The notes beneath the pieces are model-generated. The model was not told where the DNA came from. It worked only from the letters and a program-made list of their open reading frames with translations, and did not search any database. DNA of 64,000 nucleotides from Clostridium sp. Its GTDB lineage: Bacteria > Bacillota_I > Bacilli_A > RF39 > UBA660. Every line of letters begins with the position of its first letter. The stretch's first letter is position 1. Both the position numbers and the translations under genes were made by a program. Location of the stretch: contig JAMPDH010000003.1 of the NCBI GenBank assembly GCA_023665725.1, positions 5,484 through 69,483 of the forward strand, given 5' to 3'. Positions 775-57,479 of the stretch are shown here, one piece after another.

Positions 775-2073
775 ATGAAAAAAATTAAAAAGGAAAAATT
801 ATTTAGAATAGTAAGTATTTGTTTTTTAGGGTTTTTATTTATATTTTATGGGGCCCGTTTTACATATAATTACATATCAGAAAACTTAATAAATAAACAA
901 ACATCGGATTTATTTTCAGATACAATTGTATCAAAAACTAAAAAAGAAAATTTGACATATGAAAATAATACATATACTTTAATTGGAGATATTGATAATA
1001 ACTATGTTTCATATTCAGGAATTTTATGGAGAGTAATATCTGTATATGATAATGAAATTAAGATAGTTACAGATGACAGTATAACTATGATTCCATGGGG
1101 AAATAATAAAGATTATTTAAGTTCAAATATAAATACATGGTTAAATGAAAAATTATTAAATAATTTAACTAGTATAGATTATTATATTCAAGATTTTGAT
1201 GCTTGTTTAAATATAACAAATAACTCCTCTTTATCAGAATGTAAAAACTTAAGTAGTAAAATATCTTTATTATCACTTAATGATTACCTTAAAGCAGGTG
1301 CAAATAATAGCTTTATTAATAATGGAACTTACTTCTTTTTATCTTCAACAGATGAAAATAATTATCCCTGGTATGTCTTTGATAGCGGTGGTGTAAACAT
1401 TGATAAAGAAAACCATATTTATGGAGTAAGGGCTGTCATTTCATTAAAAAATACTGAAGAATTCTATGGAAGTGGAACTAAAAATGATCCATATATAGTA
1501 TTTAATAATCCTATAGATAATTTAGAAGAAGTAGAACTAGGTAGTTATATAGATTATAGTGATTACATTTGGAAAGTGATTTCAAAGGAAGATGATAGTG
1601 TAAAGCTTGTTATGACTGAACCATTAAAAGAAAATGATATAGAAATAACTAAAGCATATTCTAGATATAAAAATGTTTTTGATTTAAATGATAAAACAGG
1701 TATAGCATATTATTTAAATAACACTTTTTATAATAAATTAAATCATAAAGAGTATATAAAAAGTAAAGATTATTATATTGGTAAATATACTGATTATAAT
1801 TTAGATGAGCAATATAGTGAAAAGGTAAATTGTAATGTTGCACTTTTAACACTTGGAGATAATTTTATAACGGAATATGATGATATGTACTTAATTTCAT
1901 CTATAAAAAATGATGGAACAATACCAATAATTAAAAAAAGTATGATTTTTAGTGATTTTGTAAGTTATGAATCTTTAATAAAACCAGTAATATATTTAGA
2001 TAGTTCATTAGAAATAAAAGGTGGTATAGGGGATAGCACTTATCCATTTGAATTGAGGTTAGAAGATGAGTAA
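775..2073 (+). CDS. Membrane-anchored surface protein with two DUF6273-like modules (W[RK]VIS...VRAVI).
   Basis: A GGAG RBS lies upstream. There is an N-terminal TM anchor. A repeated module runs ILWRVISVYDNEIKIV ... YGVRAVISL, with a second copy YIWKVISKEDDSVKLV ... IKPVIYL. Confidence 0.5.
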   Translation: MKKIKKEKLFRIVSICFLGFLFIFYGARFTYNYISENLINKQTSDLFSDTIVSKTKKENLTYENNTYTLIGDIDNNYVSYSGILWRVISVYDNEIKIVTDDSITMIPWGNNKDYLSSNINTWLNEKLLNNLTSIDYYIQDFDACLNITNNSSLSECKNLSSKISLLSLNDYLKAGANNSFINNGTYFFLSSTDENNYPWYVFDSGGVNIDKENHIYGVRAVISLKNTEEFYGSGTKNDPYIVFNNPIDNLEEVELGSYIDYSDYIWKVISKEDDSVKLVMTEPLKENDIEITKAYSRYKNVFDLNDKTGIAYYLNNTFYNKLNHKEYIKSKDYYIGKYTDYNLDEQYSEKVNCNVALLTLGDNFITEYDDMYLISSIKNDGTIPIIKKSMIFSDFVSYESLIKPVIYLDSSLEIKGGIGDSTYPFELRLEDE

Positions 2074-3073
2074 AAAAAAGACAAAGAAAAAATTAAAAAA
2101 AACAACTATTTTATTAATTTTTTTAGATATATTAGCCATTGCATGTTTATTTATAATGTATGGACCAATATCATATTTTAGGAATCTATGGGTGACAACT
2201 TCTATGACTACAAAAAGCCATAAATATTTAGCTAGAACTTTTTTTAATGATGAATCAATAAATAAAATGATATCAAATAACTATGTATCTATAAACCAAA
2301 TAATAGATACAAGCGCTATAACTATAGGAGATATAGAAGAACCAGAGGTTTTTGAATCAATATATGAAGAACAAATATTAAAAAGAGATGAAGGAAATGA
2401 TTTATATAAAATTATTGAGGTAAAGGGAGATAATTATAAAGGGTATATGGCTGTAATATATGACCCATCACGTATTTCTTTAGCGACTGCAAGATATTTT
2501 GGAAAAGGTGGACAAACTATAGATAAAATAGTTGCAAATGAAAAAGCATTTTTAGGAATAAATGCTAGTGGTTTTTCTAATGGGGCAAAAGAAGGAAATA
2601 ATTTAGGGAGTCTACCCAGTGGAAATGTAATAAAAAATGGAAAAGTCATTTGGGATACAGGACATGTTGGAAATTTAATAGGGTTTAATAATGATAATGT
2701 ATTATTTTTAACAAAGTCAACAGCAAAAGAAGCAGTTAAAAATGGAATGAAAGATGCAGTAGAATTTGGACCATTTTTAATAGTAAATGGCGAACCTGCA
2801 ACAATTGGAGGAAATGGTGGATGGGGAATCGCACCAAGAACTGCAATCGCACAAAGAAAAGATGGAATAGTATTATTATTAGTTGTAGATGGAAGAAGTT
2901 CATCAAGTTTAGGTGTAGATATGCAAGAAATTATAAATATATTTATAAAATATAAGGCTTATAATGCTGCAAATTTAGACGGAGGTTACTCTTCAATAAT
3001 GTATGAAAATGGTAAAATAGTTAATGGAATTAAAACTATGAGATATTTACCAACTGCATTTGTTGTAAAATAA
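2066..3073 (+). CDS. Phosphodiester glycosidase family protein (DUF2233/NAGPA-like), membrane anchored.
   Basis: The start overlaps the previous stop (ATGA). There is an N-terminal TM. Motifs GINASGFSN, GPFLIVNGEP, AIAQRKDGIVLLLVVDGR and LDGGYSS are present. Confidence 0.6.
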   Translation: MSKKKTKKKLKKTTILLIFLDILAIACLFIMYGPISYFRNLWVTTSMTTKSHKYLARTFFNDESINKMISNNYVSINQIIDTSAITIGDIEEPEVFESIYEEQILKRDEGNDLYKIIEVKGDNYKGYMAVIYDPSRISLATARYFGKGGQTIDKIVANEKAFLGINASGFSNGAKEGNNLGSLPSGNVIKNGKVIWDTGHVGNLIGFNNDNVLFLTKSTAKEAVKNGMKDAVEFGPFLIVNGEPATIGGNGGWGIAPRTAIAQRKDGIVLLLVVDGRSSSSLGVDMQEIINIFIKYKAYNAANLDGGYSSIMYENGKIVNGIKTMRYLPTAFVVK

Positions 3074-7748: not shown

Positions 7749-7850
7749 TTATAACACCTCTAAAATATTATATGAATAAAATAAAAAAAGTTTTACAAAA
7801 TATAAAATTGTGTTATAATATTTTATAGAATAGGGATTGGAGTGTGCAAT

Positions 7851-9851
7851 ATGACAAATTTATTGTCAAAAATAGTCAACATAATAAAATATCCTTTCAT
7901 TGGACTTTTTTTTACATTATATATAATTGTGTATGTAATATACTTATTATTTAAATATCTTATACTAGGTATTATATTTATTATATATGCACCATTTAAA
8001 TTAATTTCAGGATTGCTTAAGCCCAAAGAAAACATACCAAAAACAAAACCAGAAAAAATAAGTTCAAGTAAAAGAAAGCAAGATGTAATAGAAATTCGTA
8101 ATCAAAAAAAATTACAAAAAATAGAGAAGCAACAACTTAGAAAACAACAAAAAGCTATGCTTTTTGAAAAGAAAAAACAAGAAAAGGAATTAGACAAGGT
8201 TAATCGTTTGACTAATGACCCTAAATTTGCTAAGAAACAAGCTGCAAAGGAAGCAAAAAAACAGGCTAAATTAGAAAAAGAAAATTTAATAAAACAAAAG
8301 TTATTAAACAAGGCAAAATCTGATATAAAGAAGGATGAAACCAGAGAAGAAAAAGCATTAAGATTGCTTCAAGAAAGAGAAGAAAAGAAAAAAGAAAAGG
8401 AACGTATTAGAAAGCTAAAAAAAGAAGCAAAACAAAAAGTTTTAGAAAAATCTAAACAAGATATTTTGGAAGATCCAAAACTTGCTAAGTATGCAGGCAA
8501 ACCATTTGGAAAATTAATTCAAAAAATATATACTTTGCCATTTGTAAGACGTGCTAGAAATAAAAGAGATATAAATAGACAAGCATTAATGCTTGAATTT
8601 GATAATAAATCAACTAAAAAAAATGAAACAAAGGTTGTATATATTTATGAAGCAAAGAATCCAGAAGGCAAAATTGTTAGAGAAAAATTTGCTGCATATT
8701 CCAAAGTAGAGGTACATTCATTTTTGCTTAGTGAAGGATATGAAGTATATAGTATAAAAACAAATCCTTTAATTCAAATATTATTTAAAGAAAACGCTAC
8801 TGTTAAATTTAAAACAAAAGATTTAATATTCTTTTTAACACAATTATCAACTTATATTAAAGCAGGTATTACTTTAGTAGAAGCATTAAAAGTATTATCT
8901 AGGCAATATAAACAAAGAAAGTACAAGGATATATTTAGAGGACTTATATATGATTTGTCTACAGGAGAAAGTTTTAGTAATGCCATGCTAAAACAAGAAA
9001 GTACATTTCCTAAGTTACTTATAAATATGGTTAAAGCGGCGGAACTTACAGGTGAGTTGACAGAAGCACTCGACGACATGGCAGATTATTATTCTGAGGT
9101 AAATAAAACAAGAAAACAAATGATTAATGCAATGACATATCCGGCTATTGTTCTATTTATATCTATTGCAGTTTTAACGTTTATAATGGTTTATGTTATT
9201 CCAAAATTTGTTGATATGTATGAAGCAATTGATCCAAGTAAAATACCTGGATTTACTATAGTAATAATGAATATAAGTAATTTCCTTCAAACTAATATTT
9301 TATATATTGGAATTATACTTGTTGTCGTTATTATTGCATTTATTTTATTATATAAAAAGGTTAAAGTATTTAGAACAACTATCCAATGGATATTAATGCA
9401 TATTCCTGTTATAGGAAATGTGATTATTTATAATGAAGTGTCAATGTTTACTAAGACATTTGCGTCATTACTTGCGCATAATGTATATATAACTGATAGT
9501 ATGGAAATATTACAAAAACTTACTAATAATGAAATATATCAATCAATTATTCTTGAAACAGTTACTAATTTAGCAAAAGGAGAAAAAATTTCATCTGCAT
9601 TTAAAGATCATTGGGCATTCCCAATTCCTGCATATGAAATGTTAGTAACTGGAGAAAGCACAGGTCAACTTGCAGAAATGATGCAAAAAGTATCTATATA
9701 TTATCAAGAATTACATAAGGATATTGTAACAAAGATTAAAACATTATTAGAGCCTGCATTAATCATAATATTAACTGTAATGGTTGGAATAATAGTTCTT
9801 TCAGTTGTAGTACCAATGTTTAGCTTATATAATGCAATACAAGAGATGTAA
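7851..9851 (+). CDS. pilC: Type IV pilus / T2SS platform protein PilC/GspF with a roughly 240-aa N-terminal extension (2 TM plus a Lys/Glu-rich low-complexity region).
   Basis: GGAG lies 9 nt upstream of the ATG at 7851. The GTG at 7842 has no RBS. The C-terminal 425 aa carry two T2SSF repeats (TFPKLLINMVKAAELTGEL..., LVTGESTGQLAEMMQKV) and three TM segments. An extended -10 (TGTTATAAT) sits at 7811-7819. Confidence 0.8.
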   Translation: MTNLLSKIVNIIKYPFIGLFFTLYIIVYVIYLLFKYLILGIIFIIYAPFKLISGLLKPKENIPKTKPEKISSSKRKQDVIEIRNQKKLQKIEKQQLRKQQKAMLFEKKKQEKELDKVNRLTNDPKFAKKQAAKEAKKQAKLEKENLIKQKLLNKAKSDIKKDETREEKALRLLQEREEKKKEKERIRKLKKEAKQKVLEKSKQDILEDPKLAKYAGKPFGKLIQKIYTLPFVRRARNKRDINRQALMLEFDNKSTKKNETKVVYIYEAKNPEGKIVREKFAAYSKVEVHSFLLSEGYEVYSIKTNPLIQILFKENATVKFKTKDLIFFLTQLSTYIKAGITLVEALKVLSRQYKQRKYKDIFRGLIYDLSTGESFSNAMLKQESTFPKLLINMVKAAELTGELTEALDDMADYYSEVNKTRKQMINAMTYPAIVLFISIAVLTFIMVYVIPKFVDMYEAIDPSKIPGFTIVIMNISNFLQTNILYIGIILVVVIIAFILLYKKVKVFRTTIQWILMHIPVIGNVIIYNEVSMFTKTFASLLAHNVYITDSMEILQKLTNNEIYQSIILETVTNLAKGEKISSAFKDHWAFPIPAYEMLVTGESTGQLAEMMQKVSIYYQELHKDIVTKIKTLLEPALIIILTVMVGIIVLSVVVPMFSLYNAIQEM

Positions 9852-9862
9852 GGAGTTATAAT

Positions 9863-10630
9863 ATGACTATATATTATTCAATTTGCTTTTTCATATTAGG
9901 GATGGTATTAGGATCATTTTATAATGTAGTTGGTTCTAGAATTCCTAATGGAGAATCAATATTATATCCAGGTTCCCATTGTACTAATTGTAATCATAAA
10001 TTAATGCCATGGGAACTTATTCCTGTTATTTCTTTTTTTCTTTTAAGAGGAAAATGCAGTAGTTGTAAGCAGAAAATATCATGGGTATATCCATTATTTG
10101 AATTATTTTCTGGATTATTATTTATGATAGCGTTTTTAATATTTGGACTTTCTTTAGAACTAATAATATCCTTAACTTTTATTTCACTTATTTTAATAAT
10201 TACAATAAGTGATTTTCAATATATGATAATACCTGATTCAATTATAATTTTTTTCTTTTTGTTAATTAGCGTTGAAATATTTTTTATTAGAGGATCTAAT
10301 TCATTATTATATGGTTTATTTAGCGCTTTAATATCATTTATAGTTATGTTTTTAATAAAAAAATTAGGTGATTTTCTATTTAAAAAAGAATCTATGGGCG
10401 GTGGAGATATTAAACTTCTTTCAATATTTGGACTTACATTAGGTTGGCCTATTGCATTGATATCTATATTTGTTGGAGCTTTAGTAGGATTACCAATTGC
10501 TTTAATTATATGTATAAAACACAATAATCATATTTTACCATTCGGTCCATTACTTGGAATAGGCGCAATAATACTACTTTTTACTAGAATAGATATAAAG
10601 CAAATATTAGATTTTTTTACAATATTTTAA
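9863..10630 (+). CDS. pilD: Prepilin peptidase (A24 family, PilD/ComC).
   Basis: N-terminal tetracysteine (CTNCNHKL...CSSCKQKI), a polytopic membrane domain and the GGGDIKL catalytic region. Confidence 0.85.
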   Translation: MTIYYSICFFILGMVLGSFYNVVGSRIPNGESILYPGSHCTNCNHKLMPWELIPVISFFLLRGKCSSCKQKISWVYPLFELFSGLLFMIAFLIFGLSLELIISLTFISLILIITISDFQYMIIPDSIIIFFFLLISVEIFFIRGSNSLLYGLFSALISFIVMFLIKKLGDFLFKKESMGGGDIKLLSIFGLTLGWPIALISIFVGALVGLPIALIICIKHNNHILPFGPLLGIGAIILLFTRIDIKQILDFFTIF

Positions 10631-10667: not shown

Positions 10668-11285
10668 TTATAATTTTCTATATAATCCTATTGCTTTTCC
10701 TAATACACTAACATTATCTAATATTATAGGACTCATTGTATCATTTTCTGGTTGTAATCTAAAATGATTATTTTCTTTGTAAAACCTTTTAAGTGTTACT
10801 TCATTTTCTTCTGTCATTGCAACAACAATATCTCCATTTTTAGCAGTGTTTTTTCTTTCTACAATAACAATATCATTATCATGTATACCCGCATTAATCA
10901 TACTAGTTCCACTTACTAGTAATGTAAATACTTCTTTGTTATTTGGAATTAGATAAGATGGTAATTGAAAGTATTCATTCGGTTTTTCTATTGCTTCTAT
11001 TGGAGTACCAGCTGTTATTTTGCCAAGTAGTGGAACTGAAACAACATTTTCGTTCTTTTCCTGAAATTCATTTTCTACAAGTAATTCAATAGCCCTATTT
11101 TTAGAACCATCTTTTCTTATAAAACCTTTATTAGAAAGATTATTTAAATGTGCATGAATAGTAGCAGGCGAAGAAACTCCTAAATCCTTACATATTTCTC
11201 TTATAGCCGGTGGATATCCATGAGATACTATAAATTTTTTTATATATGTAAGTATCTCGTCTTGTCTTTTAGTTAATTCTTTCAA
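10668..11285 (-). CDS. lexA: LexA repressor (SOS regulator, S24 peptidase).
   Basis: N-terminal winged HTH (LTKRQDEILTYIKKF...GYPPAIREICKDLGVSSPATIHAHL). The AG cleavage site is in LLGKITAGTPIEA. Catalytic Ser is in VSGTSM and Lys is in TLKRF. Confidence 0.9.
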   Translation of the reverse strand: MKELTKRQDEILTYIKKFIVSHGYPPAIREICKDLGVSSPATIHAHLNNLSNKGFIRKDGSKNRAIELLVENEFQEKNENVVSVPLLGKITAGTPIEAIEKPNEYFQLPSYLIPNNKEVFTLLVSGTSMINAGIHDNDIVIVERKNTAKNGDIVVAMTEENEVTLKRFYKENNHFRLQPENDTMSPIILDNVSVLGKAIGLYRKL

Positions 11286-11391: not shown

Positions 11392-11412
11392 TAATTAATG
11401 GAGGTAATGATT

Positions 11413-11553
11413 ATGAAAGAAATGTTAAGAAGTAAAGGAATACTATTATTTATAGTTGCATTTATTGGAGTTACATATATTAATGCAATAGGTACAGTTA
11501 GAATAGAAAATAGTAATTATAGTAATAATTATATTGACGAAAATATTAGATAG
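11413..11553 (+). CDS. 46-aa single-TM peptide transcribed divergently from lexA, downstream of the SOS box. Candidate SOS-induced cell-division inhibitor analogous to YneA/SosA.
   Basis: GGAGGT RBS 7 nt before the ATG. The product is MKEMLRSKGILLFIVAFIGVTYINAIGTVRIENSNYSNNYIDENIR. A plausible terminator (aaatatt...aatattttttt) follows. It is absent from the ORF track because it is under 60 aa. Confidence 0.4.
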   Translation: MKEMLRSKGILLFIVAFIGVTYINAIGTVRIENSNYSNNYIDENIR

Positions 11554-11600: not shown

Positions 11601-12899
11601 TTATAAATCCCAATCTAAATCTAAATCTAAATTATCATCTAATTTTTCATTATGAGAAATATTAGTAAAATCTATTGCAGTTTTTAAATCATATTGTGAA
11701 TCTTTAGATTCTTCATCATCTTCTAGTTCGATAAGTTTTAAAATTTCCTCAATAGTGGTTTCTCCTTCTACAACTTTTTCAAGTCCATCTTGCAAAAGGG
11801 TTATAACATCAGATTGATAAACTAACTCTCTTAATTTTTCTTTTGGTAGATTTGCAGATAGGGCATCTTTGATTTTTTGATCAATCATTAATATTTCATG
11901 TATAGCAACTCTTCCATGGTATCCGTTTCCACATTCTTCACATCCAACAGGACTATATATATAATCAACATTTTTTCCTAAAACTTTCATAAGTAAATTT
12001 TTTTCATATGTATTTGTAGGACGTTTTTCTCTACAATTTTTGCATAATTTACGAGCTAAATTTTGAGATATAATTCCTGTTAATGCACTTGCAAGTAAGT
12101 ATCTTTCAACTTCCATATCTAATAAACGCTCAATAGTATTAAGTGAGTTATTAGTATGCAATGTAGATAATACTAAATGTCCAGTTATAGAAGCTCTTAC
12201 AGCAATTTTTGCAGTTTCAGTGTCACGAATTTCTCCAATCATTATTATATTAGGGTCTTGACGAAGTATAGAACGTAGTGCTGTTGCAAAATCTAATCCG
12301 ATTTCACTATTTGTTTGAATCTGATTAATTCCTTCTATATCCATTTCTATCGGATCTTCAACCGTTATTATATTTGTTTGTTCTTTGTTTAGTCTTTGAA
12401 GAATAGAGTAAACTGTTGTAGATTTTCCTGTTCCAGTAGCACCTGTAACTAATATTATTCCATTAGGAACTTCTATCATTTTTAAAACTTTTTTGTAATT
12501 TTGTTCACTAAAACCTAAAGATTCAAGTCCTGCTAAACTCATGGAATAGTCTAATATACGAATAACTACTTTTTCTCCTTCACTTGTAGGAATTGATGAA
12601 ACACGAAGATCCAAATTTAAATCTTGTAAGGTTGTTTTAATCGCACCATCTTGAGGTAAACGAGACTCAGTTATATTCATACCACTTATTATCTTTATAC
12701 GAGTAATAAGATTTTTTTTAATGCTATTAGGTATAATGCAGTAATCTATCAAAGCACCATCTATTCTAATTCTTACTTTCATATGCTCAGTTAATGGATC
12801 AAAATGTATATCACTTGCTTCACGTTTTGCAGAGTCAACTAATATTTCATTTACTATCTCCACAACTGGCATTTTATCAAAATCAAATACTTTTATCAC
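11601..12899 (-). CDS. pilB: Type IV pilus assembly ATPase of the PilB/GspE type. Short form, 432 aa, lacking the N-terminal GSPII domains.
   Basis: GTG start with a GGAGAG RBS. Walker A (GATGTGKSTT), Asp/His boxes, and the C-terminal tetracysteine CKNC...CEEC typical of GspE/PilB and absent from PilT. The acidic DLDLDWDL tail is unusual. Confidence 0.85.
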   Translation of the reverse strand: MIKVFDFDKMPVVEIVNEILVDSAKREASDIHFDPLTEHMKVRIRIDGALIDYCIIPNSIKKNLITRIKIISGMNITESRLPQDGAIKTTLQDLNLDLRVSSIPTSEGEKVVIRILDYSMSLAGLESLGFSEQNYKKVLKMIEVPNGIILVTGATGTGKSTTVYSILQRLNKEQTNIITVEDPIEMDIEGINQIQTNSEIGLDFATALRSILRQDPNIIMIGEIRDTETAKIAVRASITGHLVLSTLHTNNSLNTIERLLDMEVERYLLASALTGIISQNLARKLCKNCREKRPTNTYEKNLLMKVLGKNVDYIYSPVGCEECGNGYHGRVAIHEILMIDQKIKDALSANLPKEKLRELVYQSDVITLLQDGLEKVVEGETTIEEILKLIELEDDEESKDSQYDLKTAIDFTNISHNEKLDDNLDLDLDWDL

Positions 12900-12996: not shown

Positions 12997-14088
12997 ATGA
13001 AAAAAAACGAAAAAGGCTTTATATTAACTGAAGTTTTGATAATATCTGCTATAGTTTTAGGGGTATTAGTATTTATGTATGCACAATTTAGAAATATAAA
13101 TGTTAGTTTTAGGCAAACATATAGATATAATACAGTAGAAGGAATATATAAAGCCAATGAAATAAAAAAATTTATAGAATCTGATGCTATTAATAGTATG
13201 ATATCACTACTTAATGATGAAAATAAAACTTATATAGATATAACTGAATGTGATGTATCTACATATAATAATCCGAGTTTTTGTAAAATATTGTATGAAA
13301 AATTAGGAATTAAATCTGTATTATTATTGAATGAAGATGTTACTAGTTTAGTTAATTCGGGTATGGATAACTTAGATAATGGTACTAAGAATTTTATTAA
13401 ATATGTTGGAAAAAACTATACAGGTAATTATTATAGGATTATTGCTGTATTTGATGATGATACATATTCAACAGTTAGAATTGACATATTAAAGGATAGA
13501 TATGATTTTACTTATAATGAAGATATGTATACATTTGTAGTTCCAGCAAATGGTTATTATCAAATAGAATTATGGGGCGCGAGTGGAAGTCAGGATATTA
13601 ATACTACGGCTAGAGGAGCATATACAAGAGGTACCATATATTTGGAAAAAGATACTAAATTATACATATATGTCGGAGTCCAAGGGGATAATTCTATACA
13701 TCGTGGAGAGGATTATATAAGTAATCTAGGTGGGTATCAAGTAACAAATAATAATGAATTAATTGGCGGAGAAGAAACAGATATACGTCTAGTAAAAGGT
13801 AATCCATTAAACTTTGATAGTTTAAAATCTAGAATAATGGTTGCTGATGGTGGAACAGGATCTTCATTTATATCAGGTTATGATGGTTGCGACGCATTAA
13901 GTGAATCATCAACTATTGATAATGTAATCAATACAGGAAAATCAATTCATTACAGTGGTTATAAATTTGAAAATGCTATCATGATTGCTGGAAATAAGGA
14001 AATACCAAGTTATAATAATGGTTTCACAACTGGCAATATAGGTAATGGATATGCTAGGATTACTGTGATGTCAATAGAAGGAGTGTAG
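12997..14088 (+). CDS. Type IV pilin-like protein (class III signal peptide) with a C-terminal glycine-rich domain (ALK/LTK-type Gly_rich fold).
   Basis: AAGGGG RBS. The leader MKKNEKG|FILTEVLI carries G-1, F+1 and E+5. The C-terminal YTFVVPANGYYQIELWGASGS...ARGAYTRG...LYIYVGVQG...GGEETDIRL...MVADGGTG matches the glycine-rich domain signature. Confidence 0.7.
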   Translation: MKKNEKGFILTEVLIISAIVLGVLVFMYAQFRNINVSFRQTYRYNTVEGIYKANEIKKFIESDAINSMISLLNDENKTYIDITECDVSTYNNPSFCKILYEKLGIKSVLLLNEDVTSLVNSGMDNLDNGTKNFIKYVGKNYTGNYYRIIAVFDDDTYSTVRIDILKDRYDFTYNEDMYTFVVPANGYYQIELWGASGSQDINTTARGAYTRGTIYLEKDTKLYIYVGVQGDNSIHRGEDYISNLGGYQVTNNNELIGGEETDIRLVKGNPLNFDSLKSRIMVADGGTGSSFISGYDGCDALSESSTIDNVINTGKSIHYSGYKFENAIMIAGNKEIPSYNNGFTTGNIGNGYARITVMSIEGV

Positions 14089-14090
14089 TT

Positions 14091-15209
14091 ATGAAAAAGA
14101 ATGCTTTTACTATAGTAGAATTAATAGTTTCACTAAGTATAACTTTAGTTGTAATGATTATACTCTATGAAATTATAATTTTACTTAAAGACACATTTCA
14201 ATCATCTAGTTTAAAAACAGAAATTTTAAATAAGGAGTCTATATTAATTGATAATATGTATTCCGATTTTAATAATAATTCTGTTTCTTCAATTATACAA
14301 TGTGGTGACTATTGTTTAGATTTTACAATGACTAATGCAAATACAAAACGTTTACAAATTGACAAAGAAAACTTAACAATTTCTTATGGAGATTATATTA
14401 TAAAATTAAAAGACACTTATAGTATAGGAAATATATATTTTTCAAATGATTCTATTGCTTCATATGATAACAACAATAATTCTATTTTAGCTATAAAAAT
14501 ACCAATATATTCTAAAGTAAGTGGAAACGAGGATTTAGGAATAAAAATTGCATTTTCTTATAATAGTAGGCAAGTTTCCATAGGTCCAATTTATATAGTT
14601 GATAATACAAACGATTGTAGTGATAACACATTTTGTAAAGACAGTAAATATAATATAGGTGACAAGGTTAAATTAGCCGGATTTAATTGGCATATTATAG
14701 AAGATAATGAATCTACTATTACACTTTTACTTGATACAAGTGAAATACCTAACAGAAGTCATGTTACTCAAACAATGACATCATACAATTGGTCTACATC
14801 ATATATAAATGACTATTTAAATAATAATTTTTATAATTTATTAAAAATAAATGGTTTAAATTTGGATTATATAATAACATCTAAAACAGGAATATGTGAT
14901 GATAAAACTTTAAGTGGTGGTAATCCTGGAAGTCTTTCAACAGAAGGAACTACTTGTAATTCAAACTATATATATTCTAACGTAAGAATGATGTCAGTAG
15001 ATGAATTCCAAAAATTAAAAAATTATTTAACCGAAAATAATATAAATTCTGAATTTTTATATTCTTCTACTGCTGGTAAATGGGCTTTGATTAATGGAGT
15101 TAAAGATAAAAATAATATAGTTCAAATTGATGAAAATGGAAATACAATTGAAGATAACTACTCATCACTTCTAAATGTGAGAGCTGTAATTGAGATAAGA
15201 AAAAAATAA
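14091..15209 (+). CDS. Pseudopilin-like protein with a prepilin-type N-terminus and a C-terminal DUF6273-like domain.
   Basis: GAAGGAG RBS overlapping the upstream stop. The leader MKKNA|FTIVELIV has F+1 and E+5. The C-terminal VKLAGFNWHIIEDNESTITLLLD...MMSVDEFQKL...LLNVRAVIEI has the same architecture as the 775..2073 product. Confidence 0.65.
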   Translation: MKKNAFTIVELIVSLSITLVVMIILYEIIILLKDTFQSSSLKTEILNKESILIDNMYSDFNNNSVSSIIQCGDYCLDFTMTNANTKRLQIDKENLTISYGDYIIKLKDTYSIGNIYFSNDSIASYDNNNNSILAIKIPIYSKVSGNEDLGIKIAFSYNSRQVSIGPIYIVDNTNDCSDNTFCKDSKYNIGDKVKLAGFNWHIIEDNESTITLLLDTSEIPNRSHVTQTMTSYNWSTSYINDYLNNNFYNLLKINGLNLDYIITSKTGICDDKTLSGGNPGSLSTEGTTCNSNYIYSNVRMMSVDEFQKLKNYLTENNINSEFLYSSTAGKWALINGVKDKNNIVQIDENGNTIEDNYSSLLNVRAVIEIRKK

Positions 15210-29410: not shown

Positions 29411-30755
29411 AGATAATATTTTTAGAGAATACGATATCAGAGGTATTTATAATGAAGATTTAACTGATGAAACTGCTTATCTTATAGGAAGAGGATTTGG
29501 AACACATATTAAATCTATTGGACAAACTAATACAGTAATAGGACACGATAATAGACTATCCTCTCCTAATTTAACCGAAAATTTAATAAAAGGAATTTTA
29601 GAAAGTGGAATTGATGTTATAGATTTAGGATTGGTCACAACTCCAATGTATTATTATTCTAAAATATTTTATAATATTAATTCAGGAATAATGGTTACTG
29701 CAAGCCATAATCCGGCAATTTATAATGGTTTTAAAGTGTCTTTTGAAAAAGAAAAAAATGCTTACGGGGATTCTATAATTATGCTTAGAGATCTTATAAA
29801 AAGTGAAAATTATTCAAATGGAATTGGAAATTTAATAAAAAAAGATATTACAAATGACTATATAGAATTGCTTGTAAATAACATAAAATTAGATAAAAAA
29901 TTAAAAGTAGTAGTAGACTGTGGTAATGGAACAGGATCTATAATAATTAAAAAAATATTAGATAGATTAAATATAGAATATAAACTTATTTATTGTGAAA
30001 GTGATGGAAGTTTTCCAAACCATGATCCAGATCCATCATTAGATAAAAATATGATAGAATTATCAGAAATGGTAAAAAATTTAAATTATGATTTAGGCGT
30101 TGGAATAGATGGTGATGCCGATAGAGTAGGGCTTGTTGACAATTTAGGTAATACTATAAAAACTGACTATTATTTAATAGTAATGTATAAATATTTATAT
30201 AATAAATTAAAAAATAAAAAAGCTTTATTTGATGTAAAATGTTCAAGAAGTTTAATAGATGAACTTAACAATATAGGAATAACCCCTGTTATGTATAGAA
30301 CAGGAAATTCCTATATAAATGCAAAAATGATAGATGGTGATTTTGATTTTGGTGGAGAATATTCTGGACACATATATTTTAGAGATAAATTTTTAGGGTT
30401 TGATGATGGAATATATGCAGGGCTTAGAATGATAGAATTACTTTCTAATAAAAATACTAGTTTAAATGATGAACTTAAAAATATTAAAAGATATTATTCT
30501 ACTGAAGAAATAAAGATAAACACAGATGATATTAAAAAATTTGAATTAGTAGATAAGGTAAAGTTATATTGCAAAAAAAATCAATATGAAATAAGAGAAA
30601 TAGATGGAGTAAGAGTAGAATTTAGTGATTCTTGGGCACTTATTAGAGTTTCTAATACAACTCCATGCTTAACTTTACGATTTGAAGCCGAAACAAAAGA
30701 AAGACTAGAAGAAATAAAAAATGAATTTATCGATTATATAAATAGTTTATTATAA
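29397..30755 (+). CDS. Phosphomannomutase/phosphoglucomutase (alpha-D-phosphohexomutase family).
   Basis: GGAGG RBS before the ATG at 29397; the start overlaps the xerD end. Active-site TASHNP, Mg site GIDGDADR, and a C-terminal GExSGH-like region (GEYSGH). Confidence 0.75.
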   Translation: MEKIKDNIFREYDIRGIYNEDLTDETAYLIGRGFGTHIKSIGQTNTVIGHDNRLSSPNLTENLIKGILESGIDVIDLGLVTTPMYYYSKIFYNINSGIMVTASHNPAIYNGFKVSFEKEKNAYGDSIIMLRDLIKSENYSNGIGNLIKKDITNDYIELLVNNIKLDKKLKVVVDCGNGTGSIIIKKILDRLNIEYKLIYCESDGSFPNHDPDPSLDKNMIELSEMVKNLNYDLGVGIDGDADRVGLVDNLGNTIKTDYYLIVMYKYLYNKLKNKKALFDVKCSRSLIDELNNIGITPVMYRTGNSYINAKMIDGDFDFGGEYSGHIYFRDKFLGFDDGIYAGLRMIELLSNKNTSLNDELKNIKRYYSTEEIKINTDDIKKFELVDKVKLYCKKNQYEIREIDGVRVEFSDSWALIRVSNTTPCLTLRFEAETKERLEEIKNEFIDYINSLL

Positions 30756-30849
30756 ATTTTAATAACATAACTTAATAAATTGCTTTTTTTTAAAATTGTG
30801 CTATAATAATTTTAAATTTTTAGTTGTAAATTAATAAAGGGGCAATATT

Positions 30850-31692
30850 ATGAGGATTGATGATATTAATTCAGAAAGTGAATATATAAGGGAAATTAAT
30901 AAAATAGAACTACTTTCTGAAAAAGAGGAAATGTATCTTTTTAAAATAAGAAGTAAAGAAGCAAAACAAAAGCTTATTGAAAGCAATTTAAGATTGGTTG
31001 TAAGCATTGCCAAAAATTATACTGATAGAGGTATTCCATTTTTGGATTTAGTTCAAGAAGGAAATCTCGGATTAATTAGAGCAGTAGAATTATTTGACTG
31101 TAGATATGGTAACAAGTTTTCCACATATGCAACTCCATGCATTAAATATACAATAAAAAGAGCAATCGCTACTAAAGAAAATTCAATAAAATTTCCTGCC
31201 AACATAGCTAGTAAATTATATAAAATAAATTATATTGAAGCAACATTAACAGAGAAATTGAATAGGGTGCCAACTGTCGAAGAAATATCAAAAGAAATAA
31301 ATATACCATTATTACAATTTAAAGAAATTTATAAATCATTAAAGCAACAAATAATAAGCATAGATTGTCCTATAGGAGAAGATGAAGATTCAACATTACT
31401 AGATTTAATTAAAGATGAAAGCAATATAGATTTAGATGAATATGTAGCAAATATAGAGATTAAAGAAGCTATTTTTAACGCTTTACAAACATTGACAAAA
31501 AAAGAGCAACTTATAATTAAGCTTTACTTTGGATTTGATGGATTATCTAGAATGAATATACCAAAGATAGCAAAAACACTTAATTGCTCTGAAACTGATA
31601 TTATTAATGCCTATAAAAAAGCTATTTATAAACTAAAAGATGAACTCGGTTATTTACAAGATCAAGATAAAAAAGAATATAAAATTATATAG
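30850..31692 (+). CDS. Sigma-70 family sigma factor. A SigA-like paralog, 280 aa, with no region 1.1.
   Basis: An extended -10 (TGCTATAAT) and AAGGGG RBS upstream. Region 2 is nearly identical in pattern to SigA ([56 protein letters not shown]). Region 4 is [11 protein letters not shown]...IAKTL. Confidence 0.75.
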
Positions 31693-31717
31693 ATATTTTA
31701 ATTAATATCTTTTTTTT
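31691..31717 (+). terminator. Intrinsic terminator after the sigma paralog.
   Basis: agatatt-ttaatt-aatatct followed by TTTTTTT. Confidence 0.65.
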
Positions 31718-31786
31718 AGAAAAATTTTAAAGTTCTTTTTTATCATATTTATACATAAATATATATAAAGTAGGTGAGGTATAAGT

Positions 31787-32533
31787 ATGAATAATATTTT
31801 ACTTGGTTTTATATTAACTACAATTGCTGGATTCTCTACAATGATTGGAACATTACTTATATTTTTTAAAAAGAATAAAAAAATAATTATATCATCTCTT
31901 GCTTTTGCATCTGGTGTAATGCTTTGTGTGTCTCTAACAGATTTAATACCAGAAAGTGTTAAATTAATAAATGAAAAATTTAATACAATTCCTACTATTC
32001 TTTTAGTACTTATATTTATAGTAATAGGTATAATTATTTCATCATATATAAATTTAAAACTTCCCATAGAAAAAAAGGAGAATAATGGATTATATAAAGT
32101 AGGAATATTTTCAATGTTTGCAATAATTGCACACAATATACCAGAGGGAATAGCAACATTTTTAGCTACAAGTACTGATACATCTCTTGGAATCATGCTT
32201 ACGATAGCTATAGCGCTTCATAATATACCAGAAGGTATAAGTATATCAATTCCTATATATTATTCACTAAATAGCAAAAAAAAAGCAATAGGATACACTT
32301 TAATTTCAGCTCTATCAGAACCATTTGGTGCCCTACTTGCTTATATATTTTTAAGTAGGGTAGTAAATAACCAAATAATGGGTTATATTTTTTCTAGTAT
32401 TGCAGGAATAATGATATACATATCACTTTATGAATTACTTCCTACATCATTTAAATACAAAGATAAGAAACGAACAATAATATTATTTATAATAGGAATA
32501 ATATTTATGTATATTAATTCAATTTTATTTTAA
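31787..32533 (+). CDS. ZIP family metal (zinc) transporter, ZupT-like.
   Basis: GGTGAGGT RBS. Eight TM segments. HNIPEG occurs twice (AIIAHNIPEGIATF, ALHNIPEGISISIPIY). Confidence 0.8.
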   Translation: MNNILLGFILTTIAGFSTMIGTLLIFFKKNKKIIISSLAFASGVMLCVSLTDLIPESVKLINEKFNTIPTILLVLIFIVIGIIISSYINLKLPIEKKENNGLYKVGIFSMFAIIAHNIPEGIATFLATSTDTSLGIMLTIAIALHNIPEGISISIPIYYSLNSKKKAIGYTLISALSEPFGALLAYIFLSRVVNNQIMGYIFSSIAGIMIYISLYELLPTSFKYKDKKRTIILFIIGIIFMYINSILF

Positions 32534-32536
32534 TAA

Positions 32537-32561
32537 AAGGAACTATAATTAATAGTTCCTT
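32537..32561. terminator. Bidirectional terminator between the ZIP transporter gene (+) and the small ORF (-).
   Basis: aaggaactat / atagttcctt 10-bp stem. On the minus strand it is followed by a U-rich run. Confidence 0.55.
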
Positions 32562-32587
32562 AAATTTGGGTAAATTAATACATCAAA

Positions 32588-32740
32588 TTATTTACATTCA
32601 TATGAATTACTATTATTACTATTATTATTCATTGAAGTATTATTTGATGATGTAGTATTAGCATTTTGTTCAAAATTTGTTCTCTTAGAACTATTCTTAG
32701 AACTTTTGCTTTTAGATTTTAAATTCTTATTCTTATCCAT
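32588..32740 (-). CDS. Small (50 aa) basic Ser/Asn-rich hydrophilic protein.
   Basis: GGTGA RBS 4 nt before the ATG. The product is MDKNKNLKSKSKSSKNSSKRTNFEQNANTTSSNNTSMNNNSNNSNSYECK. A terminator lies downstream. It is not in the ORF track (under 60 aa). Confidence 0.3.
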   Translation of the reverse strand: MDKNKNLKSKSKSSKNSSKRTNFEQNANTTSSNNTSMNNNSNNSNSYECK

Positions 32741-32840
32741 TTTAATCACCCAATAATATTATTGGTAATTATATATAAATTATACTATTAAATGCAATTA
32801 TTTAAACTTCGTATAATTAATATTATGTTAACTTCTTATT

Positions 32841-33629
32841 TTAATTAGTAATTTTTCTAGACTCTATTTCTGCCATTTTTTCAAATACTTCTACAGCATT
32901 ATTTTGAGTTATTTCAGTATATCCAAGTTCCTTTAAAGCTTGTGTTTTAAAGGAATTAAGTTCCATAGTACGACTCATTTTTTCTTCCATTTTATGTTCT
33001 ATTTGTGCTACAAAACGCTTATGACATTCTGAAATTTTAGTTTTAGAATATCCTCCATTATTAAATATAGTAAATGCAGAAAATAAAATACTTTCAAAAA
33101 CAAATTGTTCCTCTTCTTCAAATTGAAATTGCATAGGTTTTTCAAAACCAGCAGCTTTAGCTATATATGCCAAAATATATTTTAATTCTTTTGATGTATC
33201 CATTGATTGTATAAAATTATATAAATATTTCATTGAATAATATGAATTAATATCTGCATTATCGGTACTATCTTCTAATTTTTCTTTAACAACATCTATA
33301 ATATTACCAAGTAATTCTCTTTCTTTCTTCCCTAGCCCATCGTAAATGCCATTTTCAGAAATTTCTTTACTTTTCGTATTTTCAAAAAGACTATTAATTC
33401 TAGCTTCAACTTCCATAATATAATCGGTATTTACTTTTATATTTTCTATTTCTTCAGTAGATTTAATACCTAGTAAATTTAATAATAATACTTTTTTGTC
33501 TTTTGGCCATTTATTAATATCTTCTAATTCAAGATAATTATAGATCATTTGTCTAGAAACACCTAAAAACTTTGCAAGCTTTACTTTTGAAATCCCTAGT
33601 TCTTTCAATATTTCATTTAATTTGTCCAT
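32841..33629 (-). CDS. XRE-family HTH domain protein (N-terminal HTH plus a 200-aa C-terminal domain of unknown function).
   Basis: LAKFLGVSRQMIYNYL is a classic Cro/C1-type HTH. The remainder is uncharacterised. Confidence 0.55.
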   Translation of the reverse strand: MDKLNEILKELGISKVKLAKFLGVSRQMIYNYLELEDINKWPKDKKVLLLNLLGIKSTEEIENIKVNTDYIMEVEARINSLFENTKSKEISENGIYDGLGKKERELLGNIIDVVKEKLEDSTDNADINSYYSMKYLYNFIQSMDTSKELKYILAYIAKAAGFEKPMQFQFEEEEQFVFESILFSAFTIFNNGGYSKTKISECHKRFVAQIEHKMEEKMSRTMELNSFKTQALKELGYTEITQNNAVEVFEKMAEIESRKITN

Positions 33630-40089: not shown

Positions 40090-40112
40090 ACAAAAAAGCG
40101 ATAAAATCGCTT
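40090..40112 (-). terminator. Intrinsic terminator after the MacB-like gene.
   Basis: aagcgat-aaa-atcgctt stem with a U-run on the minus strand. Confidence 0.6.
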
Positions 40113-42663: not shown

Positions 42664-42802
42664 TATTTCCTCCTTATAAATTAAGATAATGTAATTAGTA
42701 TACCATTTAAGAATATTTTTAGTCAATGTCATTAATTACAATTTAAGTTGAAAAATTTGTGAAATTTATTATATTTAAAATAAAAAGATATAAATTTTCA
42801 TA

Positions 42803-44410
42803 TCAATTTTTTATATCTCTCTTTTTATATATAATATTAGTTATTATAATTATTATAATAGTAAATATTATTGAAGTTATTATTGAAGTCATTAAATCCA
42901 AATTACAATATATATCTTTATTAATAAATAAATTATACATAGGGTTATTTAATATATAATTGCTATAATTTATAAATGTTAATGGAATATAATTAAATAC
43001 TTTACTTATCGGATCAATTGCAATAACTGGCAAAAATGTTGAGAGTAAAACTATTATTAAAGTGATTCCTGAAGTAAGCGCAACATTTAAGGATATACTT
43101 GATATAAAAAATAGTATTGCAAGAACAAATATTATAAATATAAAATGTATTCCCATATTTTTTATTACAAATAATAAATAATTAGTGGTTGTAATACTTC
43201 CTTCTTCTATTATAAGTTGTGGTATAGATAAACTATCTCCATTACCTGTTATAAACATAATTACAATAAATATTAATAATGAAATTATATATAAAATTAA
43301 TGCATTTAGTATTATATAAATAAATTTAGATAGTAATACTTTACCTCTTTTAAATGGGTTTGATAAAACCAATCTAATACTTCCTGTATTATGTTCCTTA
43401 GCAACTATCCCACTAAATAATACTATACATATTATAACTACTACTATACCCGTATAATAAATATTATTAAAACAAATTCTAATATCATATTCATTATGAA
43501 AACTTGCAAAAGAAGAAGAATCTACGAGTGGTCTTATATTATTTTCTAAGCACTCTTTATATAATAAATATTCTTGTTTTCTATCTTTAAAAGTCCCTAA
43601 TAAATAACTATTTACCAAGTCTTCATAATTATTATACTGTGAATAATGTTCTCTACTATTATTAAATTCTTCTAAAGTTGGAATTGGAAATAGTAGGTTA
43701 GATACTAATCTTTCACTATTTAAAACTACAATATACTGCCAGTTATTGGTAGTAACTTTATTATCTATAATATATTGTGATAAATAAATTTTTTGTTCAA
43801 AATAATATTTTTTATTTTCTAAATTATAATCCTTTTCTTTAGTATTTTCTAATAATTTATTTATATTATTTAATTCACTTTTATACTGTTTTAAATAAAA
43901 TTCTTCTATCTCATAAACATTACCACTTATTATTACTTCTAATATTTTATCATATTGCTCTTTTAATATTTGATATTCTCTCTTTATATTATCTAAATCA
44001 TTAGTTTCCCTATAACCATCTATAATTAGTTCATGTTCTACTAATTCATTAATTATATTTTTTGCTTTATCGTATAAATCTCCCATGTTTGATTTATCAC
44101 TAGTATAGTTATTATCATACATTAATTTATCAAGTTCTATTTGTTTTTGTTTTTTTATTAAATTAATATAAACTTCTTCTGTATTAGATTCTTTTAGTAA
44201 ATCTTTATACTTATTATAAAGTATTTCGTCTTCTTCAATACTTTCTTTTGTTATATGCCATTCGTGTTTTGACATTGAATTAAATGTTAGTTCTGGTAAT
44301 TTAAATATAACTATGGAACTTATGATTAAAATAGATAAAGTTATAATAATATTTTTTAAGTTTGTATTTTTAATAAATTCTGTTTTTAATAATCTTAAAA
44401 ATTCTTTCAT
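42803..44410 (-). CDS. ABC-2-type transporter permease (1 N-terminal TM, a roughly 300-aa extracytoplasmic domain, 5 C-terminal TM). Paralog 2.
   Basis: GGAGGA RBS. Near-identical N-terminus (MKEFLRLLKTEFIKNT) and C-terminal TM block to 44431..45987. It lies downstream of the ABC ATPase. Confidence 0.6.
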   Translation of the reverse strand: MKEFLRLLKTEFIKNTNLKNIIITLSILIISSIVIFKLPELTFNSMSKHEWHITKESIEEDEILYNKYKDLLKESNTEEVYINLIKKQKQIELDKLMYDNNYTSDKSNMGDLYDKAKNIINELVEHELIIDGYRETNDLDNIKREYQILKEQYDKILEVIISGNVYEIEEFYLKQYKSELNNINKLLENTKEKDYNLENKKYYFEQKIYLSQYIIDNKVTTNNWQYIVVLNSERLVSNLLFPIPTLEEFNNSREHYSQYNNYEDLVNSYLLGTFKDRKQEYLLYKECLENNIRPLVDSSSFASFHNEYDIRICFNNIYYTGIVVVIICIVLFSGIVAKEHNTGSIRLVLSNPFKRGKVLLSKFIYIILNALILYIISLLIFIVIMFITGNGDSLSIPQLIIEEGSITTTNYLLFVIKNMGIHFIFIIFVLAILFFISSISLNVALTSGITLIIVLLSTFLPVIAIDPISKVFNYIPLTFINYSNYILNNPMYNLFINKDIYCNLDLMTSIITSIIFTIIIIIITNIIYKKRDIKN

Positions 44411-54556: not shown

Positions 54557-54568
54557 AATCCTGCTTTT
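54547..54568. terminator. Bidirectional terminator (agcaggat-aaaa-tcctgct).
   Basis: A perfect 7-8-bp GC-containing stem flanked by T-runs on both strands. It sits between convergent genes. Confidence 0.65.
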
Positions 54569-56550: not shown

Positions 56551-56928
56551 TTATTTTGAATTTTCATTTAAAGAACATGAATCTTTTTCATCAAGTTCAT
56601 AGGTATATCCATTATTATATTTAATTTTAACAACTTTATCATTTATACTTTTACCATCATAACTTATATTAGAAATAAGTAGATTTTCATTTATTAAATC
56701 TTGTATCCCAATACAATATGTAGATCCATTAGTTATGTCGAAATCATTTTCATATTTAGTCATATATTCTTTTGTGGCTGTTTCTATTAATCGCATAGAA
56801 GCATCATTTACTTCATTATTACTATTATTTATTATATTTATAATAACATTAACAGATAAAGTAATAATAAGCGCAAGTAAAATAACCACACTAATTAATT
56901 CTATCAAAGTAAACCCATTTTTCTTCAT
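56551..56928 (-). CDS. Type IV pilin / ComGC-like major pilin with a canonical class III signal peptide.
   Basis: AGGGTGA RBS. The leader MKKNG|FTLIELISVVILLALI has G-1, F+1 and E+5. Roughly 120 aa, with a C-terminal Cys pair (YCIGIQ...DSCSL). Confidence 0.75.
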   Translation of the reverse strand: MKKNGFTLIELISVVILLALIITLSVNVIINIINNSNNEVNDASMRLIETATKEYMTKYENDFDITNGSTYCIGIQDLINENLLISNISYDGKSINDKVVKIKYNNGYTYELDEKDSCSLNENSK

Positions 56929-56933
56929 ATTAA

Positions 56934-57479
56934 TCACCCTATCATTATATCCGCTATAGCATTTCTAACATTAGAAAATGTATCAAATATGTAATAAAAG
57001 AAATCTTTAATTACATTAGTTTTGGAATTTTTATTATCTATATATAAAATAAAATCATTACCGAATTTTTCAACTCTTATATCATTTGTGTAACGTTTAT
57101 ATTTTTTTATTAAATCTTCTAAATCTATATTATTTGTATTTCCATATAAATAAATCATATCTTTATTTATATAAATACTACTACTTAGAAATGATTTAAA
57201 AAATTTTTTAATTTCAAAAATATTACATATAATAAAATCCACTCTTTTTTTCTTAAAAAATTTTTTTAAAGATTTAATTTTTATTAATTTAGATTTTGTG
57301 GTTTCAGTACTATCATGATACATTTTTTTAGATTTCCCTGATTTATAGTTAGTTAATGAATTACATATTAATATTTTTTCATTATCGTTAACTAAATCAT
57401 AAATAATCGGTTCATTTACACCAATTAATAGTACATTCCCACTTAAACATTTTGTAATTTTTATTAAATTTTCTTCCAT
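56934..57479 (-). CDS. Hypothetical protein (181 aa) between tcdA and the pilin gene.
   Basis: An ORF overlapping the downstream pilin start. No family motif. Confidence 0.4.
   Translation of the reverse strand: MEENLIKITKCLSGNVLLIGVNEPIIYDLVNDNEKILICNSLTNYKSGKSKKMYHDSTETTKSKLIKIKSLKKFFKKKRVDFIICNIFEIKKFFKSFLSSSIYINKDMIYLYGNTNNIDLEDLIKKYKRYTNDIRVEKFGNDFILYIDNKNSKTNVIKDFFYYIFDTFSNVRNAIADIMIG

Follow-up and report, generated by a model that had tools for sequence, protein, structure and literature searches.

What is the role of two adjacent bacterial genes whose products begin as type IV prepilins and end in modules that belong to other protein families? The question is raised by a 64,000-nucleotide stretch of contig JAMPDH010000003.1 (hereafter the window; GC content ~24%), from a Clostridium sp. 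genome assembly of GTDB lineage UBA660, which encodes two such proteins, here termed pilin 1 and pilin 2, side by side on the forward strand. The analysis of their leaders, domains, predicted folds, relatives and genomic setting makes it probable that they are modular pilins and serve as minor subunits of a type IV filament (T4F) whose machinery is minimal and includes, apart from ATPase, platform protein and prepilin peptidase, a small major pilin from a separate locus. Each protein joins a carrier, or pilin module (N1 or N2), to a C-terminal effector module: a reduced glycine-rich domain (GRD) in pilin 1 and a predicted DUF6273 module in pilin 2. The layout of the pair, derived from open reading frames (ORFs), homologs and AlphaFold2 (AF2) models, is as follows.

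12997..14088 (+): pilin 1 gene (ORF), 363 amino acids (aa); probable modular minor pilin made of the N1 carrier and a reduced ALK/LTK-type GRD
12997..13017 (+): class III leader of pilin 1, MKKNEKG, with predicted cleavage after G7 (sequence; homologs)
13018..13497 (+): N1 carrier (pilin) module of pilin 1 (AF2 secondary structure; phmmer family)
13498..14085 (+): effector module of pilin 1, a GRD (PF12810) with the beta-sandwich part kept and most of the polyglycine region gone (Pfam, Foldseek)
14091..15209 (+): pilin 2 gene (ORF), 372 aa; probable modular minor pilin made of the N2 carrier and a DUF6273 module
14091..14105 (+): class III leader of pilin 2, MKKNA (sequence; homologs)
14106..14585 (+): N2 carrier of pilin 2, with alpha1 helix at residues 3-61 and beta-sheet at residues 65-158 (AF2)
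14646..15206 (+): effector module of pilin 2, following a linker, with a predicted DUF6273 fold, reported as C-type-lectin-like (PF19789 matches of relatives; Foldseek)

Both ORFs are present with the positions and lengths given by an earlier inspection of the letters and ORFs (the sequence-only reading). A gap of 2 nt lies between them, and strong Shine-Dalgarno sites (AAGGGG and AAGGAG, respectively) precede both. Their products are residue-for-residue identical to two NCBI entries from a metagenome-assembled genome (MAG) that carries the label 'Clostridium sp.', P0001 and P0121; the protein identical to pilin 1 is named 'glycine rich domain-containing protein' and nothing more, and pilin 2 is named as a prepilin-type N-terminal cleavage/methylation domain protein. 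The closest GTDB genomes are gut MAGs of 'uncultured Bacilli' or 'uncultured Tenericutes' with 24-27% GC, obtained from rabbit, human (UMGS872, UMGS1045) and Hadza samples. The possibility that the two genes are chance ORFs can be discarded, because their orthologs and synteny are conserved, and the frameshifts that the sequence-only reading had named as a possible flaw were not found: the genes are intact in the relatives.

Prepilin leaders and carrier families

A class III signal combines a short basic leader with Gly (rarely Ala) at position -1, Phe or Met at +1, Glu at +5 and ~20 hydrophobic residues, and both proteins present this arrangement. Pilin 1 begins with MKKNEKG/FILTEVLIISAIVLGVLVF and pilin 2 with MKKNA/FTIVELIVSLSITLVVMIIL (the slash marks the predicted cleavage site), each with F at +1 and E at +5. 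The description of these leaders as textbook class III signal peptides is upheld by the homologs, in which the positions are conserved or nearly so; G7, F8 and E12 of pilin 1 are invariant among 17 homologs. A regular expression for the prepilin motif, run in six frames over the 64 kb of the window, returned three matches, all of them at ORF starts: pilin 1, pilin 2 and a 128-aa pilin at 56551-56937 (-). The Pfam N_methyl model accepts pilin 2 (21.6 bits, cutoff 21.2), and pilin 1 is not above its cutoff (E=0.61). Both predicted AF2 models adopt the lollipop fold, with a long alpha1 helix packed on a beta-sheet, and the cognate peptidase, assembly ATPase and platform protein are encoded in the genome. 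In both proteins the pilin module is followed by a short linker (residues ~165-170 of pilin 1 and 168-179 of pilin 2 in the models) and by an extra module foreign to type IV pili, which is the layout that defines modular pilins (Raynaud et al. 2021).

The carriers form families of their own. The N1 family, defined by an exhaustive phmmer search with the N-terminal 170 residues of pilin 1 (E<=1e-3), contains 575 cluster representatives, about half of them stand-alone pilins of ~165 aa. The G/F…E5 motif is present in 149 of the best 150 representatives, three of which are detected by N_methyl. Stand-alone pilins of <=200 aa account for 74 of these 150, and the others bear C-terminal modules, including the GRD (15), a concanavalin A (ConA)-like lectin (8) and DUF6273 (2), as well as Flg_new, a sialidase N-terminal lectin, pentaxin, DUF285, MucBP, leucine-rich repeats (LRR) and fibrinogen_C. 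The N2 carrier is likewise fused to an Ig-like domain plus GRD (P0134, P0136-P0139) and to other modules, and the combinations differ among loci: in L017 the N1 pilin lacks the GRD and the N2 pilin carries Ig-like plus GRD, and in L019 the N1 pilin carries the GRD and the N2 pilin an Ig-like domain with another module. DUF6273 is also found on pilins with a canonical 'GFTLIELLAVIVIL' carrier, in fusions of 389-819 aa from related MAGs (L007, L008, L009, L014, L016), with multiple copies per genome in Hadza and UMGS1045 MAGs. Profile searches with the globular carriers N1 and N2 yielded no Pfam family and no sequence relative in the PDB, and no likeness to GspH/I/J/K (GspK/PilX class) was seen, with no PDB sequence matches for N1 or N2 and no GspIJK among the Foldseek matches. 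We propose that N1 and N2 are conserved scaffolds, and the C-terminal modules exchangeable cassettes under diversifying pressure.

The exchange of effector modules can be followed between strains. In three protein pairs the N1 carriers are 98-99% identical and the GRDs 44-49% identical. At the DNA level, two contigs of a UMGS872-like species (L021 and L023), a relative prevalent in the human gut, share 97-100% identity over 8.9 kb, with the sole exception of a block of ~820 nt with 43-61% identity (L021:2070-2886 versus L023:6545-7361). This block has sharp bounds and corresponds to codons ~182-453 of the pilin 1 ortholog, that is, to its GRD module, and identity is back to 98.7% from the start of pilin 2. 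As read from the alignments, the divergent block is the signature of allelic cassette replacement by recombination at the module boundary, a pattern typical of exposed binding or antigenic modules on which diversifying or frequency-dependent selection acts. The allele P0006 is found very often in public metagenomes: it counts 154 member sequences, and its index entries fall in 169 blocks.

The two effector modules

The motifs ELWGASGS, ARGAYTRG, YIYVGVQG and MVADGGTG had led the sequence-only reading to assign a Gly_rich fold to the end of pilin 1, and both Pfam and the structural model agree. The PF12810 model matches pilin 1 in two stretches with 112.9 bits (cutoff 24.5; E=3.2e-32), and a family profile compared with PDB sequences retrieves ALK and LTK (E=5e-8). 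The AF2 model, computed from an alignment of 86 sequences with a mean predicted local distance difference test (pLDDT) score of 89, consists of a helix at residues 5-43, an alpha/beta pilin-like module reaching ~165-167 and a beta-rich module at 168-360, most of which exceeds a pLDDT of 90. All 21 Foldseek matches of this model in the PDB with E<=1e-3 are ALK/LTK GRD structures (probability 1.0), with low TM-scores (0.22-0.31).

The label 'glycine-rich' stands as a statement of homology to PF12810 but not as a description of this copy. The window GRD contains 26 glycines (13.8% Gly) and 3 GG runs; the full-length homologs of pilin 1 have 450-496 aa, with 60-88 glycines (20-29% Gly) and 12-23 GG runs in the module. 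Between MVADGGTG and SSFISGY ~90 residues are gone, and the gap aligns with ALK residues ~849-957. Taking the ALK alignment together with the 14 polyglycine-II segments listed for ALK in PMC13243192, the gap would correspond roughly to nine of the 14 polyglycine-II helices. The window copy retains the score and the fold of the PF12810 family without its glycine-rich polyglycine-II lattice, and is a reduced variant homologous to that family. Other short, glycine-poor forms occur in different backgrounds (P0007, P0009, P0013), and such forms have arisen several times. Low GC content was considered as the sole cause of the glycine loss and rejected, since relatives with the same GC content (24-25%) keep full glycine-rich domains.

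The glycine-rich domain of ALK binds ligand. The pilin 1 module is homologous by profile and fold to this extracellular glycine-rich (TG) domain of ALK/LTK (PDB 7NWZ, 7LIR, 7NX1), but it is bacterial and fused to a pilin, lacks the segment at ALK ~849-957 and aligns with the low TM-scores given above. GRDs also occur outside pilins, on fimbrillin-like proteins of Bacteroidota (PF13149+PF12810; an example is P0071, named 'fimbrillin family protein') and in families of phage proteins. This distribution hints at a general receptor-binding role of the GRD.

The end of pilin 2 had been likened to DUF6273, an assignment that the protein's own Pfam score, which stays under the threshold, does not carry; the predicted module holds by its relatives and by its modelled structure. 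DUF6273 is matched by 9 of the 12 sequences of the pilin 2 alignment, the window copy counted (E<=0.01, best 8.9e-7). The AF2 model (pLDDT 79) comprises the helix and beta-sheet listed above, a low-confidence linker and a well predicted C-terminal module (190-370). Foldseek comparison of this model with BFVD retrieves phage DUF6273, tail-collar fiber and receptor binding proteins (E 3e-7 to 7e-4), those with a DUF6273 domain at E 3.5e-6 to 7e-4 and probability 0.98-1.0, and the effector module matches phage family phrog_9958 (E=2e-5). The same Foldseek comparison with the PDB returned nothing significant, the best sub-significant hints being the PilB pilin of Streptococcus sanguinis (probability 0.63) and collectin carbohydrate-recognition domains.

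DUF6273 has been described as a C-type-lectin-like fold that is targeted by diversity-generating retroelements in phage receptor-binding proteins, the 'tentaclins' (PMC10743442), and as the domain at the N-terminus of ThomasA, an IgA protease from the gut (PMC12402451). The pilin 2 module shares their predicted fold, belongs to the family by way of its relatives and would share with them an occurrence in proteins that recognise surfaces or ligands; it differs in its location on a type IV pilin, its score below the Pfam cutoff and the lack of a retroelement repeat pair. Among direct repeats of >=40 nt, none links a template-like copy to the 3' end of pilin 2, and no reverse transcriptase was seen among the annotated window proteins.

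A second surface protein with a DUF6273 module is encoded at 775-2073 (+). It is a membrane-anchored protein of 432 aa, overlapped by the NAGPA (phosphodiester glycosidase) gene at 2066-3073 (+), and the gene pair is conserved in L001. The sequence-only reading had proposed that this protein and pilin 2 share a module, which is borne out for the former, with two DUF6273 stretches above cutoff (25.8 bits); profile comparison ties it to pilin 2 with no more than moderate strength (hhalign probability 68%, E=4.8e-5), and a pairwise BLASTP of the two proteins is not significant.

Assembly machinery and the proposed function

The genes that could assemble pilin 1 and pilin 2 into a filament lie, with one exception, immediately upstream of the pair.

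7842..9851 (+): platform protein of the PilC/GspF type (PF00482 in two stretches, E=1e-48)
9863..10630 (+): prepilin peptidase (A24; PF06750, E=1e-33; PF01478, E=3e-16)
11601..12899 (-): T4F assembly ATPase of the PilB/GspE type, 432 aa, divergent from the pilin pair (PF00437, E=1e-121)
56551..56937 (-): small pilin, 128 aa, MKKNG/FTLIEL, candidate major subunit (prepilin motif expression; N_methyl above cutoff)

All relatives examined (L001, L005, L017, L019, L021-L023) share one gene order, namely platform, peptidase, ATPase (-), pilin A, pilin B, and in none of them does the cassette contain a major pilin. The platform protein has an N-terminal extension of ~260 aa (7842-8640, residues 1 to ~265), formed by a membrane segment and a Lys/Glu-rich stretch, that is conserved in relatives (694-763 aa); the NCBIfam GspF/PilC models cover residues 266-666 only. 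A lexA gene (10668-11285, -) intervenes between peptidase and ATPase in this genome only, the corresponding gap in L001, L005 and L022 being ~20-60 bp. Between lexA and the ATPase, a 51-aa ORF (11398-11553, +; …RSKG/ILLFIVAFIGV, no Glu5) was considered as a degenerate PilA-like pilin and rejected, because it is too short and is missing from the relatives, where peptidase and ATPase leave no room for it. The small pilin adjoins genes for Gate (55624-56550), PDZ/LonC (54567-55577) and MutS (49699-52233) proteins. In L017 and L019 the T4F cassette is immediately followed by the Gate-LonC/PDZ-MutS genes; a rearrangement seems to have parted the small pilin from the other cassette genes.

Starting from the sequence features, domain homologies, predicted folds, conserved synteny and module swapping described above, we infer by analogy how the pair would be processed, incorporated into a filament, placed at its tip and engaged in binding a ligand. 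The adjacent A24 peptidase would cut the leaders after G7 in pilin 1 and after A5 in pilin 2, and the hydrophobic alpha1 helix with Glu5 would place each subunit in the filament core. Because each protein has a bulky C-terminal module of ~190 aa, the pilus tip is the most likely site for the two, where they would form a complex that starts assembly. The tip would then display two putative ligand-binding modules, a reduced tumour necrosis factor (TNF)-like/GRD beta-sandwich and a C-type-lectin-like DUF6273 module, whose ligands may belong to a host, dietary or microbial surface.

The modular-pilin and tip-adhesin reading fits the adjacent assembly genes and, by analogy, a precedent in S. sanguinis, where the adjacent modular pilins PilB (von Willebrand factor A, vWA, module) and PilC (ConA-like lectin) join PilA in a complex at the tip, which initiates assembly and confers adhesion (PMC8179133, PMC9934059). 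Both systems have a monoderm host and two adjacent minor pilin genes, with class III signal and Glu5, beside assembly genes; in both, a small pilin module is followed by a short linker and a bulky ligand-binding module (binding being predicted here), and the pilin 2 model weakly matches the pilin module of PilB. The differences are that the effectors are a reduced GRD and a DUF6273 module here, and vWA and lectin there; that solved pilins show no detectable resemblance to N1 or N2 in sequence; and that the present system, known from genes and models, has its major pilin outside the locus and yielded no PilA-like subunit lacking Glu5.

Several observations weigh against the interpretation as modular minor pilins displaying adhesins. 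The window GRD has lost part of its length and most of its glycines, and might not be functional. Pilin 2 scores 12.4 bits with PF19789 (DUF6273), whose cutoff is 23.5 (E=0.15), and its position -1 is Ala (14103-14105), where 10 of 11 homologs have Gly, which may lower the efficiency of processing. As both proteins retain Glu5, neither is an obvious capping subunit, and no PilA/GspI-like nucleator or PilA-like subunit without Glu5 was found. The candidate major pilin lies 41 kb from the pair and its role is assumed; PilT and PilMNO genes are absent from the window, as they are from L001 and L017. Finally, the literature searched names no ligand of any bacterial GRD or DUF6273.

Three other explanations were weighed, each of them less well supported than the modular-minor-pilin reading. 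The pair could consist of pseudopilins of a Com-like DNA-uptake pilus or of a monoderm secretion pseudopilus, with modules that capture DNA or substrate or are non-adhesive, which we judge unlikely. The machinery is indeed as minimal as in ComG (ATPase, platform, peptidase and pilins), with the lack of PilMNO and PilT already noted, the ATPase is short (432 aa), and the small pilin weakly matches the NCBIfam models of GspG, ComGC and ComGE. Yet the ATPase scores far better against GspE (485 bits) and PilB (468 bits) than against ComGA (263.6 bits, cutoff 300), and the platform protein much higher against GspF/PilC than against ComGB (144.3 bits, cutoff 240), so that the ComGA and ComGB equivalogs by which a ComG pseudopilus is recognised are not present in these two proteins; their GspE/PilB and GspF/PilC scores are likewise under the equivalog cutoffs. 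The modules of N1 pilins are, moreover, of lectin and adhesin type (ConA-like, MucBP, pentaxin, LRR, fibrinogen_C), and the replacement of GRD cassettes between strains is unexpected for a DNA receptor.

Slightly less likely again is that the prepilin signal serves for export and membrane anchoring only, leaving surface-tethered binding proteins that do not polymerise. A model for this is the archaeal 'bindosome', in which sugar-binding proteins have class III signals. The absence of a major pilin from the cassettes of the relatives and the many paralogous pilin-DUF6273 proteins per genome in related MAGs would agree with such tethering, but conservation of Glu5 and of the alpha1 helix is strict, genes for an assembly ATPase and a platform protein always accompany the pair, and the window encodes a small canonical pilin. 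The least probable of the three is that pilin 1 is a decaying gene whose truncated GRD is losing its glycines through disuse and has no present function. Its deletion of ~90 residues and its low glycine count relative to full-length relatives are what decay would produce, and the short forms P0007 and P0013 diverge faster in the C-terminal module than in the carrier (77.6% versus 97.7% and 75.3% versus 99.4% identity, respectively). Against this, the reading frame is intact and preceded by a strong Shine-Dalgarno site, the remaining module is nearly as conserved as the carrier in comparison with P0002 (62.7% versus 64.9%), AF2 folds it confidently, and short forms are found in at least three backgrounds, one such form having 85 member sequences.

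Returning to the modular-minor-pilin reading, the sequence-only reading recognised the pair correctly as a real feature, but its suggestion that a pilin joined to a glycine-rich domain is an undescribed combination does not survive, because pilins with IPR012902-PF12810 are already listed, together with a PilY1 carrying PF12810, in Datasets S1 and S2 of Raynaud et al. 2021 (PMC8179133), and modular pilins are an established concept. Pilin 1 resembles the catalogued proteins in its prepilin N-terminus followed by PF12810, of which P0057, P0103, P0120 and P0114 are examples found here; it differs from them in that they use a PilA/GspG-like 'GFTLIELL' carrier and a full glycine-rich domain, in place of N1 and a truncated GRD. 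Novelty resides in the carrier families N1 and N2 and in the swapping of the GRD between strains. The literature searched contains no account of pilin-DUF6273 fusions, of the N1/N2 families, of glycine-poor GRD variants or of strain-level cassette replacement, and reports nothing on the function of bacterial PF12810/GRD.

The set of modular type IV pilins would grow by a GRD and a DUF6273 effector module, as well as by two carrier families that lack annotation; the hosts are uncultured gut Bacilli with a very low GC content that are prevalent in humans. The pair also exposes an annotation gap: pilin 1 is named by its GRD only, and since N_methyl misses 147 of the best 150 N1 representatives, and with them almost all of the family, InterPro-based catalogues of this kind overlook N1 pilins and undercount modular pilins. 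The sharply bounded replacement of the GRD from strain to strain marks it as a likely host-, phage- or immune-facing colonisation determinant; the pilus-tip setting offers a concrete, testable hypothesis for binding by bacterial GRDs, and a natural glycine-poor GRD a handle on the role of the polyglycine lattice.

A more ambitious joint interpretation is possible, though on the whole doubtful. It would have a tip complex operating in prevalent uncultured Tenericutes-like gut Bacilli, N1 and N2 acting as docking scaffolds for swappable receptor-binding cassettes, the GRD being a widespread, horizontally mobile adhesin module of bacteria and phages that is swapped between strains at the module boundary, and the window copy representing a natural minimal GRD. 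If this were so, the GRD, whose one known function is cytokine binding in the metazoan ALK/LTK receptors, would be displayed by filament systems of three unrelated kinds (type IV pilins, PilY1 and Bacteroidota type V fimbrillins) as well as by phage proteins, and its TNF-like core would fold and work without the polyglycine-II lattice.

Other features of the window

The gene that follows the pilin pair encodes SMC. A scan for promoters and terminators in the AT-rich DNA of the window performed no better than on shuffled sequence. Cumulative GC skew peaks at ~30-32 kb, where gene orientation turns from mostly + to mostly - (about 30000-33000), which is consistent with a terminus-like region of converging replication forks.

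Two tandem paralogous genes for ABC-2 family permeases lie at 42803-44410 (-) and 44431-45987 (-), with 80% identity over 300 nt in a DNA repeat (D1), downstream of a gene for an ABC ATPase-FtsX fusion (40111-42732). A 608-aa ORF at 52341-54167 (-) has no Pfam match; it contains an internal duplication (DNA repeat D11, 52686 versus 53472) and a HELxH-like motif, 'YHELFH'.

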